Origin: a virus
Virus genome (UHGV): UHGV-1366609
Strand: one strand, 5' to 3'
DNA length: 29,779 bases
Shown here: piece after piece, positions 20,927-29,779 of the stretch
How the letters are laid out: each line of letters starts with the position of its first letter
Position numbering within the stretch: the stretch's first letter is position 1
Notes under the pieces: model-generated
What the model was told of the DNA's origin: nothing
Databases searched by the model: none
The model's input: the letters and a program-made list of their open reading frames with translations, nothing else
Position numbers and translations under genes: made by a program

Positions 20927-21381
20927 CAGAAAGGTACTCCGCCGTCAAAATCACCGACTGGCGACGTCTTGAATGTAAAAGCCGTTCCTGGGCGAAATTT
21001 GCGGGCGTTCTTGAATGATCGAAAAGTGCGCGAGTGCGGGAAGCTATCCCCCGTCATGACATCCATTGCGATTACATCAACCCGAACGGAACCACGCTCC
21101 CGGCGAGTGATAGAGATAACCTTCTCAACTACTGCAAAAACAGAGGTGTCGTGAGGGGCATAAGGTGCGACCGGCGAGACTTGTTGCACTGCCGGACTAT
21201 GTTTCTCAATTAGTGGATCAAGTATCGCGTTAAAGGAAATTAGCAATGTATTAGCCACGTCAGGCCCAGCCAAAACGCCCGCTAACGTCGCATGGGCAAG
21301 CGCAATGGTTTTAGCTTCGTTAAGCGCAGCCAGCACTCCGCGTGTAAATTCGGATTGAGTTGCATCGATACGGGTTGCCAT
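20926..21381 (-). CDS. Hypothetical early protein ending in an SSB-tip-like tail
   Basis: 151 aa; C-terminus ...SPVGDFDGGVPF confirmed from the nucleotides. Coupled to the Dam stop upstream and the 75-aa start downstream. Confidence 0.5.
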   Translation of the reverse strand: MATRIDATQSEFTRGVLAALNEAKTIALAHATLAGVLAGPDVANTLLISFNAILDPLIEKHSPAVQQVSPVAPYAPHDTSVFAVVEKVISITRRERGSVRVDVIAMDVMTGDSFPHSRTFRSFKNARKFRPGTAFTFKTSPVGDFDGGVPF

Positions 21382-22346
21382 TAAAAAGCCTCCACGCCAT
21401 TGGCCGCAGCCGATGCCAGCATTTCGTTGTAGGTCGCGTCCCCCATTACCGGGCCGCAGTCAGGACAACAGCCACCACCGGCACGACCGCAGCCGCTGCA
21501 CACTTTGAGGACGCCGATCACCTCTTTGGCCTTTTCGCGGTTTTTAGTGCTGGCGCTTACCGAACGCTGGACGGCAATTTCCTGGAAGCGGAAGTCTTTG
21601 TAGATCTCGCGAGTCAGCGGGGTGTCGCTGTTAGAAATCACGACAGACGCGCCAGTCTCTCGGTTTGCTTTCAGAAGGGCGGCAACAAGCTGGCGGTGTT
21701 GCTTCTTACCAAATGGGCCAGTGTGGTACTGGGTAAAATTGGCGGTGTCACTTGCAGGCAGGTACGGCGGATCACAGTAAATAACGCTATCAGGGAAAAG
21801 AGGGGCGTTGATGGCGTCTACGAAGTCACTACAAAGAAATAAAGTGCAGGTATCGCGGGCCTTTTCAGAGAACAAGCGGATCTCCACTTCTGGCAAATAC
21901 TGCGTTTCTTTATCCTTCCCCTTTCCGTAAGGGGTGTTGTACTCACCTTTCAGGTTGTAGCGCACAACACCGTTGTAGCCGTGGCGGTTCAGGTACAAAA
22001 AGAACGCGGCGCGGGCGACACTAGTAAAATGGTGGCGCAGGCGGCGACCTTTCGGATGATTGAACATGTCGCGAAGTTTTGCGTAATTTGCGCTGGTATT
22101 GCGGTTCTTAAACAAGTCGCGAGACAGGCTTATCAGTTCGTCAGGGGTGCTTCTGGCAACACGATAAAGGTTAATCAAATCGGGGTTTATATCGCTCAGA
22201 ATGTAGCGACGATAATCTGTATTCAGGAAGACGGAAGCGCCCCCCACAAACGGCTCAACCAGGCATTCACCTTTCGGCAGAATCGGCAGTAATTCAGGCA
22301 TAACGCGGCCTTTACCACCGGGCCATTTAACGAGAGATCGAATCAT
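21381..22346 (-). CDS. dam: Dam-family DNA adenine methyltransferase (likely GATC-specific) with C-terminal Cys-rich extension
   Basis: N-terminus VKWPGGK...LPKGECLVEPFVGGASVFLNTDYRRYILSDINPDLINLY is near-collinear with E. coli Dam as I recall it; motif IV VIYCDPPY. Extra C-terminal CSGCGRAGGGCCPDCG. Confidence 0.85.
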   Translation of the reverse strand: MIRSLVKWPGGKGRVMPELLPILPKGECLVEPFVGGASVFLNTDYRRYILSDINPDLINLYRVARSTPDELISLSRDLFKNRNTSANYAKLRDMFNHPKGRRLRHHFTSVARAAFFLYLNRHGYNGVVRYNLKGEYNTPYGKGKDKETQYLPEVEIRLFSEKARDTCTLFLCSDFVDAINAPLFPDSVIYCDPPYLPASDTANFTQYHTGPFGKKQHRQLVAALLKANRETGASVVISNSDTPLTREIYKDFRFQEIAVQRSVSASTKNREKAKEVIGVLKVCSGCGRAGGGCCPDCGPVMGDATYNEMLASAAANGVEAF

Positions 22347-25032: not shown

Positions 25033-25158
25033 AGGGTTAGTTAAGTCTGTTATATACTGAATCAGCGCAGTGCGTTACGGCGCTGCGCTATTTGAAAACC
25101 TCCCAGCAAGGGGAAGGTCAAGTGTTTAAATTGCTGATTGAAAGGGATTTTTAAAATC

Positions 25159-25199
25159 AGCGTCCACATAGCGTCCACACTTCGATAAAAGTGTCCACA
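25159..25199. repeat. Three direct GTCCACA repeats (reverse complement TGTGGAC), candidate integrase arm-type sites of attP
   Basis: AGCGTCCACA at 25159..25168 and 25170..25179 (11-bp period), GTGTCCACA at 25191..25199; the reverse complements read TGTGGACG, TGTGGACG and TGTGGACA. Confidence 0.5.
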
Positions 25200-25212
25200 A
25201 TACAAAGACAAA

Positions 25213-25238
25213 GCCTCGCCACCCGCGGGGCTTTTTTT
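25213..25238 (+). terminator. GC-rich hairpin followed by T7 run (terminator-like; possibly part of the att region)
   Basis: GCCTCGCCACCCGCGGGGC followed by TTTTTTT; the stem is imperfect. Confidence 0.4.
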
Positions 25239-25310
25239 CTTTTACTGAATGCTAGTAATCGTTAGACTTCATGTGACAAAAAATAACCTTTCGACAAGGA
25301 GTGTTTTTAA

Positions 25311-25820
25311 ATGGCAATGACAAAATGTAAAGAGTGCAAAAAAGAGGTATCAGCAAAGGCTAAGACTTGCCCTCATTGTGGAGTAAAGGATCCTGGCTTT
25401 AGCGCCAAAGATGCAATGGGTGGTTTTGTTTTTCTGTTAATCCTTGGGGCAATTGGGTACTGGTATTTCAGTGGTGATGAAGAGGCAACGGCCAAAGATG
25501 AGCCAAAAGTTAAGGTGTGTGCTAAGAATGATGGGCAGTGTATTTTTGAAGCCCATTTAGTTGATGCTTTGGTAGCCTGTAAAAGCCCGATTGAGAAAAC
25601 TTCAAAGTATGATTTCGAATGGACCAATGGTGCATTTGAAAATATCTTTAGTCGGTACATCAACAAACCGGAACAGAACCAGATTGTTTATGTGGGCGAT
25701 AAGCTGAAATTTACGAATGGGTTTAACGCCAAAGTGAACATGACGTATTCATGCACCCTTGACACAAAAACAAACAAAATGATCGATTATGAAGTGACTA
25801 AAGGGCGCTTGCCCGATTGA
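25311..25820 (+). CDS. AT-rich cargo (moron) gene: zinc-ribbon, single transmembrane helix, Cys-containing C-terminal domain; function unknown
   Basis: 169 aa. CKEC-x10-CPHC ribbon, hydrophobic GGFVFLLILGAIGYWYF, then about 115 aa with four Cys. Own AAGGAG 9 nt upstream of the ATG; composition visibly AT-richer than neighbouring phage genes. Confidence 0.6.
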   Translation: MAMTKCKECKKEVSAKAKTCPHCGVKDPGFSAKDAMGGFVFLLILGAIGYWYFSGDEEATAKDEPKVKVCAKNDGQCIFEAHLVDALVACKSPIEKTSKYDFEWTNGAFENIFSRYINKPEQNQIVYVGDKLKFTNGFNAKVNMTYSCTLDTKTNKMIDYEVTKGRLPD

Positions 25821-26013
25821 TCCTTCCTCGCATTATTTTGCAAAAACTATAGCTGCATCATTTCTCCCCAAAGCCTTGCCGCGCAAGGCTTCACGCATTT
25901 TTCAACGAAACTTTCCAGCCTACCGCCGACCACATTTGATCGTGACGGAATCTAAAACGATCCTTTTAAAAACATCATGTTATCCAGTCGGTTAGCGACT
26001 GGCGGCGCGGTGA

Positions 26014-26125
26014 CTTTTGCAAAGTGCTGCAAATCTTTGCGCAGCGTGCAAACGCCCGCAGGATGCAAAAGCCCAGCAGCGGCGCAGGCTGGCGGGGGGC
26101 TTTGCACAAAATTTCTTTTGCAAAA
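26014..26125. repeat. Array of TGCAAA half-sites including two palindromes TTTTGCAAA(G/A) about 100 bp apart, in a 510-bp non-coding gap
   Basis: CTTTTGCAAAG at 26014..26024 and CTTTTGCAAAA at 26115..26125, plus TGCAAA at about 26028, 26048, 26064 and TTTGCACAAAA at 26101. Confidence 0.4.
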
Positions 26126-26329
26126 TTTTTATGATCCAAACTGCGCAGGCGGGTGCGGTGTAGCGCCGTTTCCGTCCTGGATCCGCTTCCGTCTGCCTGC
26201 TGTCGCTTGCGCTGTGGGTCGCTGTTGAACGAACGAAAGAAAGGCCGCACGGTGGCGACCTTTAATGTTTGCGCCTGCTGTGGCGCGTTCTGTGGTGTCT
26301 GGTGAGGTGTGCGGTTATACCGCTTTTTG

Positions 26330-28054
26330 TCAGGCTATCAGGGGACCGTATTTGCTTTTTAATGTGCCGGTTTTAGTGGCCGTTGCGGTGAACTGTGCAG
26401 CCTGCCCGCTGGCCCCTGTATTGGGGTGAGTATGTGACGCGGCAGTCTCTGCCAGCTCCCTCACCACGTCCAGGGTGTCGGTGAGTAGTGTCAGGACGTT
26501 AATCTCTTCGCTTCCCAGTTTTACCACCGGGGCAATCAGTTGTTGCGCCTGGGCCACACTTCGGCGGATGCCGCTGATTTTTTCAGTCAGTGCGCCGCTG
26601 ACGTTTGACGTAACATTCCCTTTCACGTCGTCTGTAACATCGCCCGCGACGTCCCGTTTTACGTTCCGGCCAACACTGACGGAATTGTCCTTGCTGCAGG
26701 TTACTGTCAGGTTGCCGGATGTGCCGATACTGTAATCACCCTCGCTGATATGGACCACCGCCCCGGCCAGAAGTGTGGCCGTGCCAAGCACGGTTGTTTT
26801 ATCCGTTGCCTGGACCGTAGTTTCACGGACAACCACTTTGCGGATCTCTTCGTCGGTGGTGACTTCGCGCATCATGGAGTTTTCGCGGATTGTCTGGTCC
26901 GTCTGGCGTTCCCAGTCTCCGGCAACCGTCACGCGCTGCGATACACCATCGCGCTGTTGCTGCAACTGCTCGCCGGGTTTAACCGCTGGCAGGTTATGAC
27001 CCTCCGCCATAATCTGGCGCACAAAGGGCTTATCCTGCCGCCCCTCAGTGAACCCAATTTCAACCAGCGTGCCAGGGGGCGGAAACTGGAACATTCCCGA
27101 CTCGCTGCCCGCCATTGGCACAGGTAGCGGAACGGCAGAATAAACCGGCGTATTTGCGGCTGGCTTGCCGTCTTCGTCAAGCAGCTGGAGATCCACGGCG
27201 TAGCGCGGGCGGAATGGATCGGCAATATCCCCCCCGGAAACATCCTCGCTTGGTGCTTCCACCCTGGCGAACTTTGGAAGATGCAGGCCGCTTGCCAGCT
27301 CCGGGAATGCGTTTTCAATCTGCCGCTGAATTGGTGATTTTTGCAATGGCTGGCCGTTGGCTTTGTTGCGGGGCTGCCATGTGATTGCCATGTCGTCGTT
27401 ATTTAGCCGAACCTGGTTCAGCCGCTGGCCGTTCACTTCCGCACCCGGTCGCAGGCTCTGAATCATTGGCACAACCATTGAATTTCCGCCTGCCGATTCC
27501 TGGCTAAATTCATGCGGGATCTCCACTGGTTTACCCGCAAAAAGACTGTGCTCCGCAGCGCCGACGAAGACATCCCCGTCCGGCAGCTGATACCAAAGAT
27601 AATCCGTCACTGAAAATGCACGGCCCAGACTGGCAAGAAGCTGATAGCCCGTGCCGCTGTGCGTAAAGTGGGGGATTGGTTTATCTGCATAAGCAGCGCC
27701 GACCGGCGTTGTGACGGTAAGCCCGCTTTGCTCACTTATCCAGTCAGTAATCTGGCGCAGCGTTGGATGCTGGAAAGAACACGGCCACAATTTGTCAAAG
27801 ATGCCAACCAGCTCACGCACGAATAATCGGCATGTTCCATTATCAGCAGGCTGTGACCGTTCAACGTACCCGGTAAACCAGCGCAGGACCAGACCATCAT
27901 AGCCAACATCGATCCGCACCATCTTGCCGGTGTAATCTGTCTCTGTCCCTGCCGTAATAAACCCCCGACCGCACGCGTTCAGCTCCAGCACGATATTGCA
28001 GTCAATCAGATGGACCGGATCAGAGGAAAGGTACAGGCGTTTAATTGGTTTCAT
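26330..28054 (-). CDS. Baseplate central hub/spike protein (gpV/gp5-like OB-fold and His-rich apex fused to a long N-terminal domain)
   Basis: 574 aa. MFQFPPPGTLVEIGFTEGRQDKPFV resembles the gpV/gp5 OB-fold core; C-terminal ASHTHPNTGASG resembles the HxH spike-apex motif of P2 gpV. The first about 330 aa are hub-sized. Confidence 0.55.
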   Translation of the reverse strand: MKPIKRLYLSSDPVHLIDCNIVLELNACGRGFITAGTETDYTGKMVRIDVGYDGLVLRWFTGYVERSQPADNGTCRLFVRELVGIFDKLWPCSFQHPTLRQITDWISEQSGLTVTTPVGAAYADKPIPHFTHSGTGYQLLASLGRAFSVTDYLWYQLPDGDVFVGAAEHSLFAGKPVEIPHEFSQESAGGNSMVVPMIQSLRPGAEVNGQRLNQVRLNNDDMAITWQPRNKANGQPLQKSPIQRQIENAFPELASGLHLPKFARVEAPSEDVSGGDIADPFRPRYAVDLQLLDEDGKPAANTPVYSAVPLPVPMAGSESGMFQFPPPGTLVEIGFTEGRQDKPFVRQIMAEGHNLPAVKPGEQLQQQRDGVSQRVTVAGDWERQTDQTIRENSMMREVTTDEEIRKVVVRETTVQATDKTTVLGTATLLAGAVVHISEGDYSIGTSGNLTVTCSKDNSVSVGRNVKRDVAGDVTDDVKGNVTSNVSGALTEKISGIRRSVAQAQQLIAPVVKLGSEEINVLTLLTDTLDVVRELAETAASHTHPNTGASGQAAQFTATATKTGTLKSKYGPLIA

Positions 28055-28061
28055 CGTTTAA

Positions 28062-28604
28062 TTACCCCAGCGCATCGTTGACCGGCTTTAAGACCTTTTC
28101 TTCAAACCAGCTCATTTTGTCGGCTGGCTCATCAGCACCGGCAGCCGGACCCGCGCCCTTTACCCCTGTTTGCTTGGTGCTGGCCGTCGCGTTGCCTTTT
28201 CGGGCCTGTCGTTTTTCCGGGACGCTGCCTTTTTCACGCAGGGTGAAACTTACCTGCCAGGCAAGGCGATCCTCCTGCGGTACGGCATCAATCTGACCGG
28301 TAAACGTGGCTTCACGAAGGTTGATAGCCGTCGCCGTCGCATTGGCTACGCGGTACTTTTTCAGTGCGCCGCTGGCTTCGGTCGCGGATGCCAGCTGGAA
28401 AAGCCGCTGTAAGACGGCTTCGTCGTCGAATGTCACCAGACCCGACACGCGCAGCTCTTTGGCCTTGATACCCTGTTCAGCATTGGCCGTGCTCGATGTC
28501 TGGCCCGACTGGTCTTTCTCCTGAAACTGCATGGAAGGTGAAACCAGCATGTTCTGCATGGCGATCCCTTCACCATCAAGCGCGAGTAGTGCGGTCTGGC
28601 TCAT
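28062..28604 (-). CDS. Hypothetical tail-module protein (start uncertain)
   Basis: 180 aa ORF between the hub/spike and the 247-aa ORF, overlapping the latter by 29 nt; no motif recognised. Confidence 0.4.
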   Translation of the reverse strand: MSQTALLALDGEGIAMQNMLVSPSMQFQEKDQSGQTSSTANAEQGIKAKELRVSGLVTFDDEAVLQRLFQLASATEASGALKKYRVANATATAINLREATFTGQIDAVPQEDRLAWQVSFTLREKGSVPEKRQARKGNATASTKQTGVKGAGPAAGADEPADKMSWFEEKVLKPVNDALG

Positions 28605-29319
28605 GTAGCATCTTCCCTAAGTCAGATAACGAATCCCCGATAAACATCATCGCGGCGGTATGCACTGCCGTTGTTTGCGGGATGCCTTTCAGTAATTCAG
28701 CGGCGGCAACGGCATAATTCCCGCTGTAGCTGAATGAAAAAATATTCGCGCTGGCGGCTTTCAGTTCATCCAGTCCCTGGCTGAGTGAGGCCAGCAAACC
28801 GGCCCGCTCCTGAATAAATCCCGTCACCTGGTTTTTTAGATCTGTTGTGGTGGTACTGACTGCGGCGGCCAGCTGCGCGGCGGCAACACGCTGGGCATTC
28901 AGCGCCAGCCGGTTGGTTGAGACTGATAACGGCGTACTGGCTGGCAATACATCGGCTTTAACCGGCAACTGCATTTTTACCGTGCTGAGTTCTGCGGCGG
29001 CTGCGGCCATACGGCTTACCTGCGTAAATACCGGGGCCGGAAATACGGTGGACAGTTTATTCAGTCCCTGCATAAAAGCGTCGTGGGTATTTTCCGCCAC
29101 CATCATGACGATGACATCACCGCTACCGCTACCGCCACCGGATAACAGCTTTTTAGCAAGGTATCCCAGCGCATTGGCCGGACTGAGATAACCGCCTGAA
29201 TCGGTGTTCTGTCCCAGACCGTAAACCCAGGGATGCGCCGGAATAACTGAGCAGGATAAAGCCGACATATCATCGGCAATTTTAATAACTGAATTACGCC
29301 ACATTGTTAAAACCTTCAA
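28576..29319 (-). CDS. Hypothetical Ala-rich protein downstream of the tail fibre assembly gene (structural or cargo, unresolved)
   Basis: 247 aa with Gly-Ser linker SGGGSGSGD and an Ala-rich helical region; overlaps the Tfa stop, so the true start is probably internal. Confidence 0.4.
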   Translation of the reverse strand: MKVLTMWRNSVIKIADDMSALSCSVIPAHPWVYGLGQNTDSGGYLSPANALGYLAKKLLSGGGSGSGDVIVMMVAENTHDAFMQGLNKLSTVFPAPVFTQVSRMAAAAAELSTVKMQLPVKADVLPASTPLSVSTNRLALNAQRVAAAQLAAAVSTTTTDLKNQVTGFIQERAGLLASLSQGLDELKAASANIFSFSYSGNYAVAAAELLKGIPQTTAVHTAAMMFIGDSLSDLGKMLHEPDRTTRA

Positions 29320-29737
29320 ATTCCGGCCAGTTGTCTGGTATATCCTGCGGATCTAAAGCGCTAAGCTCATCAAGGTAATCCAGGGCTTTGCCATACAGTT
29401 CTTTTTCGTCGTCAGTAAGACGACCCAGCACTGCTTTACCCGGCCACTGCCTGTCATTGATAAATGTATTAATTTCGTCCAGACGGCGACTTTTCTCATA
29501 TTTAGCCTGGGTAATCAGTTGTTCGCGCGTTAATGGCGGAATATCAATCCAGCATGGTGCGCCTTTTTTATCTGTACCAAGCAGCTTTCCATATGGAGGC
29601 GGCTGAATAAAAGTCAGATAAGTATTCAAATCTACATCCACGCCGGATTTCGGCCAGGTTCCGGCAGCATCAAAATCAGCTTTACTGGAATATGGATAAA
29701 AAATATTTCCGGAAAAACGATATTTATCACTCATCAT
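29294..29737 (-). CDS. Tail fibre assembly protein (P2 gpG / lambda Tfa-like)
   Basis: Start at ATG 29737 (MMSDKYRFSGNIFYP...), preceded by TGAGGTG. C-terminus ...ALDPQDIPDNWPEFEGF matches the conserved P..WPE ending of Tfa proteins as recalled. Confidence 0.6.
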   Translation of the reverse strand: MMSDKYRFSGNIFYPYSSKADFDAAGTWPKSGVDVDLNTYLTFIQPPPYGKLLGTDKKGAPCWIDIPPLTREQLITQAKYEKSRRLDEINTFINDRQWPGKAVLGRLTDDEKELYGKALDYLDELSALDPQDIPDNWPEFEGFNNVA

Positions 29738-29779
29738 CACCTCAGTAACCAATTGCAAACCAGATGCAGTCTTCCCAGC

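Follow-up and report, generated by a model that had tools for sequence, protein, structure and literature searches.

Organization of the locus

The window, by which we mean the whole stretch of 29,779 nucleotides that was analysed, is the genome, in circularly permuted form, of an HP1-subgroup Peduoviridae phage that is about 95% identical to the Salmonella phages SI7, SW3 and SW5. Three open reading frames lie on its minus strand at 26330-28054 (574 aa), 28062-28604 (180 aa) and 28576-29319 (247 aa when read from a TTG), exactly where a preliminary description of this DNA had placed them, and identity to SI7 over this region is 94.8%. They are homologues of HP1 orf35, orf34 and orf33, respectively, and close the late operon. 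Hundreds of full-length homologues were found for each, and each product gave a strong PHROG match: phrog_2258 ('baseplate protein') over the full length of the 574-aa protein (E 1.1e-276; residues 1-574 against profile positions 1-544 of 544), phrog_1398 for the 180-aa protein (1e-70) and phrog_1677 for the 247-aa protein (4.9e-78), the last of which also holds HP1 orf33 and K139 orf37. Given the numbers of homologues and the strength of these matches, all three are real genes rather than chance reading frames.

Upstream of orf33, on the same strand, lies the gene for Tfa (29294..29758), a gpG-like tail fibre assembly chaperone (Pfam Caudo_TAP, 3e-20). The tail fibre gene runs from 1510 to 1 and, with its reading frame unbroken at the window ends, continues to a stop near 29741. 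The Tfa gene and orf33 overlap by 11 nt, orf33 and orf34 overlap by 29 nt, and a gap of 7 nt separates orf34 from orf35. Since the 11-nt overlap with the Tfa stop is exactly that of the SI7 annotation and homologues are 240-242 aa long, orf33 most likely starts at ATG 29304 (MWRNS...), giving a 242-aa product (28576..29304, minus strand), rather than at TTG 29319. About 70 nt past the stop codon of the 574-aa gene, a terminator-like hairpin with a 9-bp stem and a T-rich tail (26240..26263, minus strand) is the probable end of the late operon; the terminator T39 annotated in K139 occupies the same position.

The variable regions of this part of the genome are the fibre tip and Tfa, upstream of the three genes, and a slot of low GC content that lies downstream of the spike gene. 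At the megablast level Tfa is not shared with SI7 or with E. coli prophages, whereas the sequence from 29304 downward is, and Tfa belongs to an exchangeable fibre-tip/chaperone cassette. The slot (25033..25934), bounded by the late-operon end and the integrase, contains a zinc-ribbon ORF of 169 aa on the plus strand (25311-25820) and has a GC content of 0.43-0.46, against 0.52-0.58 for orf33-orf35. It is absent from SI7 and the E. coli prophages, to which positions 25935-29304 are common, and relatives carry AbiH, HicAB or small ORFs at this position. The real accessory slot is therefore the one downstream of the 574-aa gene.

Probable hub and spike regions of the 574-aa protein

The 574-aa protein is very probably a fusion of a gpD-like hub (approximately residues 1-235) and a gpV/gp5-type spike. 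A hub-spike fusion had been proposed in the preliminary description, and the reading is supported for the spike by family-level statistics and for the hub by a gpD profile alignment that scored above controls, as well as by published HHpred work in which the HP1 protein was stated to fuse homologues of gpD and gpV (PMC10612066, Tables S1 and S2). Identity to HP1 orf35 as measured by tblastn is 44% in the N-terminal half and 40% in the C-terminal half, and a protein cluster 98% identical to the 574-aa protein contains 594 member sequences from 400 contigs. Searches of the public literature for HP1 orf35 together with baseplate, and for vB_YenM_324, returned nothing.

Three successive regions make up the spike, all on the minus strand. 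The first is an OB-fold of the gpV/gp5/VgrG type (27005..27292; approximately residues 255-350), which includes GTLVEIGFTEGRQDKPFV at residues 328-345. Pfam Phage_base_V matched the 574-aa protein itself below its gathering score (E 0.012; 16.4 bits against 23.8), and it matched the OB-fold of 39/39 family members, with a best value of 9e-6. Among PDB sequences, a profile of the family matched VgrG chains across the OB-fold and helix (7e-5) and the beta-helix chains of T4 gp5 (2.6e-6 to 1e-5). The latter matches, together with those of Gp5_C and Gp5_trimer_C, fall in the second region, a triple-stranded beta-helix (26555..26857; approximately residues 400-500). This helix is of the octapeptide type, and its length differs among relatives in steps of about 8 residues, visible as indels at alignment columns 460-490 and as protein lengths of 574, 566, 558 and 551 residues. 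The third region (26333..26554) is a C-terminal tip in which an HxH motif (H541 and H543; nucleotides 26426-26434) precedes a final stretch of about 30 aa. The sequence SHTHPNTGASG, which like GTLVEIGFTEGRQDKPFV had been quoted in the preliminary description, occupies residues 540-550. Both histidines are invariant in 39 homologues, as are G328, V331, E332, F335, G338, R339, D341 and P343. At the level of a motif the tip resembles P2 gpV LHTHKHPGDSGG (HTHKHP) and Mu gp45 KHIHRGDSGG; a statistically significant alignment of the tip to that of gpV was not found. We infer that the HxH tip is a metal-binding apex. An origin from a type VI secretion (T6SS) VgrG was considered and rejected, as TIGR01646 gave 16.1 bits against a cutoff of 121.8 and the context is a phage late operon rather than a T6SS locus.

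The N-terminal domain had been estimated at about 330 aa, and this extent did not hold: the gpD/gp27-like region (27350..28054, minus strand) covers about 235 aa, and in relatives that encode hub and spike separately the boundary lies at residues 227-240, the hub domain being a gene of its own in phi3 and ACA1. Weak sequence signals point to a hub function for residues 1-235. The phrog_196 family ('baseplate hub') matched residues 25-146 at 2e-5, and hhalign against an alignment of 11 gpD sequences placed residues 40-149 on gpD 64-176 with a score of 28.4 (P 0.0047). This score lies about 5 standard deviations above those of 30 column-shuffle controls (mean 15.2, sd 2.5, maximum 21.4). The alignment is co-linear over 104 columns, takes in the TL..I..., IPH and S-x-x-x-L-x-x-LG stretches, and beats 30/30 shuffles as well as five unrelated or reversed controls. 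The signal appeared only with a diverse gpD alignment; gpD relatives from a locus search, at least 98% identical, were useless for building a profile, and no significant hhalign match was obtained between the family profiles and individual P2 gpD, gpV or gpU sequences.

Properties of ORF34 and orf33

The 180-aa protein (28062..28604, minus strand) belongs to the Pfam family HP1_ORF34 (PF25759, 'baseplate complex protein'), which it matched with 179.9 bits (cutoff 27) over residues 7-180, aligned with profile positions 3-176 of 180. Its predicted structure comprises a core with the tail-tube fold at residues 1-125, then a linker that is disordered (127-161) and, at 166-179, a conserved C-terminal helix, and the best fold matches of the model were tube-initiator and ripcord proteins. 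Both the tail-tube fold and the position of the gene beside the hub gene agree with a tube initiator. Pfam Phage_P2_GpU did not match ORF34, hhalign to P2 gpU gave a P of 0.35, and the link from orf34 to gpU is marked '?' in published tables (PMC10612066). We infer that ORF34 is the tube initiator and the functional counterpart of P2 gpU.

The orf33 product is a member of a narrow, lineage-specific, conserved family of low-copy virion proteins. Homologues of orf33, gpD and gpV were found in virions of ACA1, where the orf33 homologue, a distant relative, was represented by two mass spectrometry spectra (PMC10612066). Searches of Pfam, NCBIfam and PADLOC with orf33 gave no match, nor did a search of PDB sequences with either the single sequence or a profile of Neff 6. 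Its predicted model, of moderate confidence (pLDDT 67.6), had no fold match by Foldseek in BFVD, and hhalign against 19 P2 and Mu tail proteins gave a best P of 0.013, which is not significant after 19 tests. Long and fused variants of the family were likewise without Pfam matches; the apparent fusions were explained by read-through of Tfa and by a chimera with the spike that arose through a deletion. The most conserved motif, HPW.YG.GQ...SG.YLSP.NA at residues 24-45, lies in a part of the model with low confidence. We place orf33 tentatively, by exclusion, as a hub/wedge-associated, glue-like component of the baseplate, because it is the sole late-operon product without a P2 counterpart and gpX is the sole P2 baseplate protein without a counterpart in the HP1 subgroup. 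A tblastn match to P2 gpX (E 0.14) fell in an ORF that lies out of frame in the spike gene and was dismissed as chance.

A probable baseplate module and its relation to known phages

The preliminary description had raised the possibility that the 247- and 180-aa ORFs are cargo. In this account they would be morons inserted behind the tail-fibre chaperone gene and no part of the virion, as with Z/fun of P2, where fun(Z) does directly follow gene G. That orf33 has no recognisable domain would fit such an origin, and insertions nearby do occur, since ACA1 carries a diversity-generating retroelement (DGR) between its fibre gene and orf33. The comparison of this interval across relatives, which had been suggested as a check, nevertheless revealed no variability. 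We compared 84 loci with an orf33 homologue, spanning Haemophilus HP1, Vibrio K139, Yersinia, Salmonella and E. coli prophages, and found 83 with orf34 adjacent and 82 with orf35 adjacent, contig ends accounting for the exceptions; every complete locus thus has the genes in the same order, and hub and spike are in a single frame in 82/82. The GC content of the three genes matches that of the late operon, the coding regions of orf33 and orf34 overlap the starts and stops of their neighbours, PADLOC found no matches, and the start codon of orf33 is precisely where the block common to SI7 and the E. coli prophages begins. With the tail-tube fold and Pfam baseplate family of ORF34 and the detection of the ACA1 orf33 homologue in virions (PMC10612066), the cargo proposal is refuted on the grounds by which it was to be judged, namely homology to baseplate proteins and invariance of the interval, and we consider it extremely improbable. 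A second alternative, that the N-terminal 235 aa are an unrelated adaptor domain and the 574-aa protein merely a spike with an N-terminal extension, we regard as improbable. It would account for the failure of Pfam Phage_GPD to match the 574-aa protein or its family members, for a profile search of PDB sequences with this domain that returned no hub proteins and only a spurious beta-propeller repeat match, for a domain about 150 residues shorter than gpD (387 aa), and for the fact that phrog_196 is distinct from the families of P2 gpD (phrog_52) and Mu gp44 (phrog_177). It is at odds with the profile-profile alignment to gpD, which exceeded every shuffled, unrelated and reversed control, with the lack of any other hub, spike or tube-initiator candidate in the fully inventoried late operon, and with independent HHpred work that ties the HP1 domain to P2 gpD at an identity of 10-11% (PMC10612066).

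As for orf33, the protein might not be a building block of the baseplate at all, acting instead as an assembly factor, as an adaptor for fibre attachment together with the fibre and Tfa, or as a spike-borne protein released at infection. Its gene directly follows that of Tfa, with an overlapping start; its median identity (72%) indicates faster evolution than that of both neighbours (orf34, 86%; hub domain, 84%) and is near that of the baseplate-proximal part of the fibre (71%); low model confidence of the motif at residues 24-45 is expected for a segment that becomes ordered only on a partner; and the support of its homologue by mass spectrometry amounts to two spectra. Yet the fibre-tip/Tfa cassette is exchanged while orf33 remains with the backbone, with the recombination boundary at the orf33 ATG, ACA1 keeps orf33 although its receptor-binding protein is a different, DGR-diversified polypeptide, and the homologue was detected in purified virions in which other non-structural proteins were undetected (PMC10612066). 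We consider a role outside the baseplate rather unlikely. That orf33 is a structurally new, HP1-lineage-specific baseplate component taking the place of gpX is possible but less likely than not, and in a rarer variant of this reading it may be carried on the VgrG-like spike and delivered into the host. If orf33 does replace gpX, then in the minimal baseplates of HP1-type phages hub, wedge and sheath initiator would be joined on a principle other than that of P2 and the R-type pyocins.

Very probably, then, the interval at the 3' end of the late operon of this HP1-subgroup Peduoviridae phage is its central baseplate module, encoding the hub-spike, the tube initiator and the orf33 virion protein. 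In the model that we propose, orf33, orf34 and orf35 would be expressed as a translationally coupled end of that operon. The 574-aa protein would presumably form a trimer, in which the gpD/gp27-like N-terminal domains would build the hub ring and the C-terminal halves the membrane-piercing spike, with its OB-fold, triple beta-helix and putative metal-binding HxH tip; this is the VgrG-style architecture, reached here through the fusion of genes that P2 (D and V) and some members of the HP1 subgroup keep apart. ORF34 would sit on the hub as tube initiator, leaving its linker and conserved C-terminal helix available for docking onto the wedge, and orf33 would tentatively be the hub/wedge-associated, glue-like component. 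As the three genes are conserved baseplate genes of the HP1 type and not cargo, the finding is an ordinary one and has largely been described already, with little importance beyond correct annotation. It does fix roles for three genes that are mostly labelled 'hypothetical protein' in public records, and the cargo/defence slot after the hub-spike gene is useful for mining these prophages for defence genes. Some records carry the mislabels 'adenine glycosylase', 'nucleoid DNA-binding protein' or 'head completion protein'.

The same three genes, in the same order, follow the Tfa gene and close the late operon in HP1 (orf33-orf34-orf35), SI7 (gp22-gp24), K139 (orf37-39) and Yersinia phage vB_YenM_324 (gp33-35), all of which have hub and spike fused, and the order TMP, DUF2590(W), J, I, fibre, Tfa, orf33, orf34, orf35 is common to these phages. 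Protein identity across the three genes is 91-99% to SI7 and 26-45% to HP1. Nothing of substance sets the present locus apart from the four, although SI7 differs in its fibre tip, Tfa and downstream cargo. P2 provides through gpD and gpV the two functions proposed for the 574-aa protein, and the likeness of the spikes extends to the OB-fold, the beta-helix and the HxH tip motif. In P2, however, these are products of two genes in different operons, whereas here they form one polypeptide, and the hub domain is about 235 aa long against 387 aa for P2 gpD, with a sequence identity near the detection limit. The gene for gpD in P2 and that for the 574-aa protein each close the series of late genes ahead of the att/int region. 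T6SS VgrG shares the domain order of hub, OB-fold and beta-helix, but the hub of the 574-aa protein is much shorter and its tip is of the phage gpV type with HxH. The nearest known proteins to ORF34 are P2 gpU and the tube-initiator and ripcord proteins of contractile tails (pyocin R2 PA0626, Pa193 gp38 and Pam3 gp17); it has no detectable sequence similarity to gpU, has no long ripcord domain, and is without the LysM domain that eCIS initiators carry. Finally, the likeness of orf33 to P2 gpX, a LysM 'glue' protein, is one of analogy by exclusion only, as orf33 has 242 aa against 67 aa for gpX, contains no LysM domain and resembles it in neither sequence nor fold.

Three genes conserved after the tail fibre assembly gene

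The tail fibre assembly chaperone gene (Tfa, gpG-like; 29758-29294, minus strand) is followed on the same strand by three ORFs, of 247 (29319-28576), 180 (28604-28062) and 574 aa (28054-26330), as the preliminary description had placed them. They correspond to orf33, orf34 and orf35 of Haemophilus phage HP1. The tail fibre gene lies in two pieces (1-1510 and 29741-29779, minus strand): from its start at 1510 it reads past base 1, resumes in frame at 29779 and stops just before the Tfa start. Since this frame is continuous across the ends, the window represents a complete genome, circularly permuted and about 29.8 kb long. The minus-strand late operon could be accounted for throughout. The head and packaging genes (scaffold gpO, capsid gpN, small terminase gpM) are followed by the head and tail completion genes gpL, gpR and gpS, the tail shaft genes (sheath, DUF2586; tube, HP1_Orf24), a lysis group (holin, endolysin, spanins), the tail assembly genes (chaperone, tape measure), and then the wedge and fibre genes, comprising DUF2590 (equivalent to gpW), gpJ, gpI, the fibre and Tfa, after which come the three ORFs. 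None of the genome's other ORFs matched hub, spike, tube-initiator or LysM families.

From the tape measure gene through to orf35, HP1, Vibrio phage K139, Yersinia phage vB_YenM_324 and Salmonella phage SI7 all share one gene order. We assembled 84 loci, comprising 80 IMG/VR loci carrying the orf33 family, with all neighbours mapped, together with SI7, HP1, YenM_324 and K139. An orf34 homologue adjoins the orf33 homologue in 83 of the 84 and an orf35 homologue in 82, the exceptions being contig ends; orf33 and orf34 overlap at their aligned ends, the median overlap being 23 nt. The three genes have a GC content of 0.52-0.58, like the late operon. The preliminary description had suggested that the two smaller ORFs could be cargo; the description's own test for this, baseplate homology and an interval that does not vary among relatives, goes against cargo, and this reading is wrong.

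Salmonella phages SI7, SW3 and SW5 (Peduoviridae, Irrigatiovirus) match the region at 94.8% identity, and prophages of 19 complete E. coli genomes match it at 96.4%. The block that the window shares with SI7 and these prophages extends from 29304 to 25935, with 94-96% identity across it. Its edge is a sharp mosaic boundary at 29304/29305, exactly at the orf33 ATG; beyond it, the Tfa gene and fibre C-terminus (29305-29779, continuing from window position 1) had no megablast-level match in SI7 or these prophages. The boundary is a host-range cassette swap. Across loci, the stretch separating orf33 from the conserved N-terminus of the fibre, which is occupied by the fibre tip and Tfa, varies from 854 to 2626 nt.

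The real cargo slot lies between a terminator-like hairpin after orf35 (26263-26240, minus strand) and the integrase. GC content falls to 0.43-0.46 in this interval (25033-25934), and neither SI7 nor the E. coli prophages share its sequence. The slot contains a plus-strand 169-aa ORF (25311-25820; phrog_13160) with an N-terminal zinc ribbon, which gave only sub-threshold zinc-ribbon matches in Pfam and no match in PADLOC. Since the same slot holds an AbiH abortive-infection gene in an E. coli O103:H2 prophage, HicAB in Pseudomonas phage phi3 and two small ORFs in SI7, it is the likely site at which this phage group carries morons or defence genes. Elsewhere, the genome encodes a 321-aa Dam-type DNA adenine methyltransferase (21381-22346, minus strand) with a DPPY motif and a Cys-rich C-terminal tail (CSGCGRAGGGCCPDCGP); the equivalent early region of SI7 has two methyltransferase genes.

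The orf34 and orf33 proteins

Pfam places the 180-aa protein in PF25759 (HP1_ORF34, "baseplate complex protein") at 179.9 bits. In its AF2 model residues 1-125 form a confident core (pLDDT above 90); residues 127-161 are a disordered linker, and the C-terminal helix after it bears the invariant W166, F167, E168, V171 and L172. We found no sequence similarity to P2 gpU, the tube initiator, and a gpU link for this family has been flagged as uncertain (PMC10612066). In a recent P2 cryo-EM preprint, six copies of gpU sit on the trimer of the hub gpD and the gpU C-terminal helix touches the wedge. A major tube protein is already present in the phage, and the 180-aa gene adjoins the hub gene; from its fold, position and architecture we assign the protein as the putative tube initiator. 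The homologue in YenM_324 (gp34, locus L003 6698-7243) is recorded as an "adenine glycosylase", and phi3 gp33 (locus L086 3962-4501), placed by position, as a "nucleoid DNA-binding protein"; both names look wrong.

The 247-aa ORF is better started at the ATG at 29304 (242 aa, MWRNS...). From there it has an 11-nt overlap with the end of Tfa, the arrangement annotated in SI7, and homologues are 240-242 aa long. The protein falls in phrog_1677 with HP1 orf33 and K139 orf37, and had no matches in Pfam, NCBIfam or PADLOC. Among 1.84 billion proteins its narrow family has 207 representatives at 50% identity, and a Neff-6 profile matched nothing in PDB sequences or 19 P2 and Mu tail proteins. AF2 gave a model of moderate confidence (pLDDT 67.6), in which a long helical hairpin accompanies an alpha/beta domain. 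The homologue in Pseudoalteromonas phage ACA1 was seen in purified virions by two spectra (PMC10612066), and the YenM_324 record names its homologue a "structural protein". Orf33 is the sole late protein lacking a P2 counterpart, and gpX, the P2 LysM "glue" protein, is the sole P2 baseplate protein lacking one here. By this exclusion, the leading, if tentative, hypothesis is that orf33 might be a glue-like hub/wedge component, its main rival being an assembly factor or fibre-adaptor. The preliminary observation is confirmed, and the finding is ordinary.

The 574-aa hub-spike protein

The OB-fold and His-containing apex motifs noted previously were found at residues 328-345 and 540-550, with key residues invariant in 39 of 39 homologues. 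Pfam Phage_base_V fell below threshold in the 574-aa sequence, yet matched all 39 family members (best 9e-6), and the family profile matched the T4 gp5 beta-helix (2.6e-6) and the VgrG OB-fold and helix (7e-5). Assignment of the C-terminal half as a spike is well supported. In the beta-helix (residues ~400-500; 26555-26857), close relatives of 574, 566, 558 and 551 aa differ by steps of about eight residues, consistent with gain or loss of octapeptide helix turns. A 129-aa out-of-frame ORF within the gene (26929-27318, minus strand), the window's top tblastn match to gpX (25%, 57 aa, E 0.14), was judged a chance match, with the look of an Arg/Ser/Cys/Trp-rich artefact. A database protein, P0394 (323 aa), fuses the N-terminal ~90 residues of an orf33 homologue directly to the OB-fold and spike part of an orf35 homologue; a deletion that took out orf34 and the hub domain in a decaying prophage is the probable origin.

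The hub half appears gpD-like, less certainly than the spike half. Pfam Phage_GPD did not match the protein, the N-terminal profile retrieved nothing relevant from PDB sequences, and hhalign against a single gpD sequence was not significant. When a profile of residues 1-250 (20 sequences) was aligned by hhalign with 11 diverse gpD sequences, the score was 28.4 (P 0.0047) over 104 co-linear columns, residues 40-149 pairing with gpD 64-176; 30 column shuffles gave 15.2 ± 2.5 (maximum 21.4) and five unrelated or reversed controls 13-15.5. Residues 25-146 also matched phrog_196, "baseplate hub" (2e-5). The hub-spike reading is right, though not new for this family, since the gpD-gpV fusion in HP1 is on record (PMC10612066). 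The N-terminal domain had been put at about 330 aa; its boundary lies near residue 235, where phi3 and ACA1 split hub and spike into separate genes. Both halves are contiguous in one frame in 82 of 82 loci. The hub-spike gene of SW5 is recorded as a "head completion protein", which looks wrong, and the phi3 hub-domain gene (L086 4501-5190) carries no annotation.

No statistical alignment of the tip to that of P2 gpV was obtained; H541 and H543 are invariant among the 39 homologues, and their motif resembles HTHKHP of P2 gpV and KHIH of Mu gp45. In architecture the 574-aa protein is like the T6SS VgrG, but it is not a member of the VgrG family, scoring 16 bits where the cutoff is 121.8.
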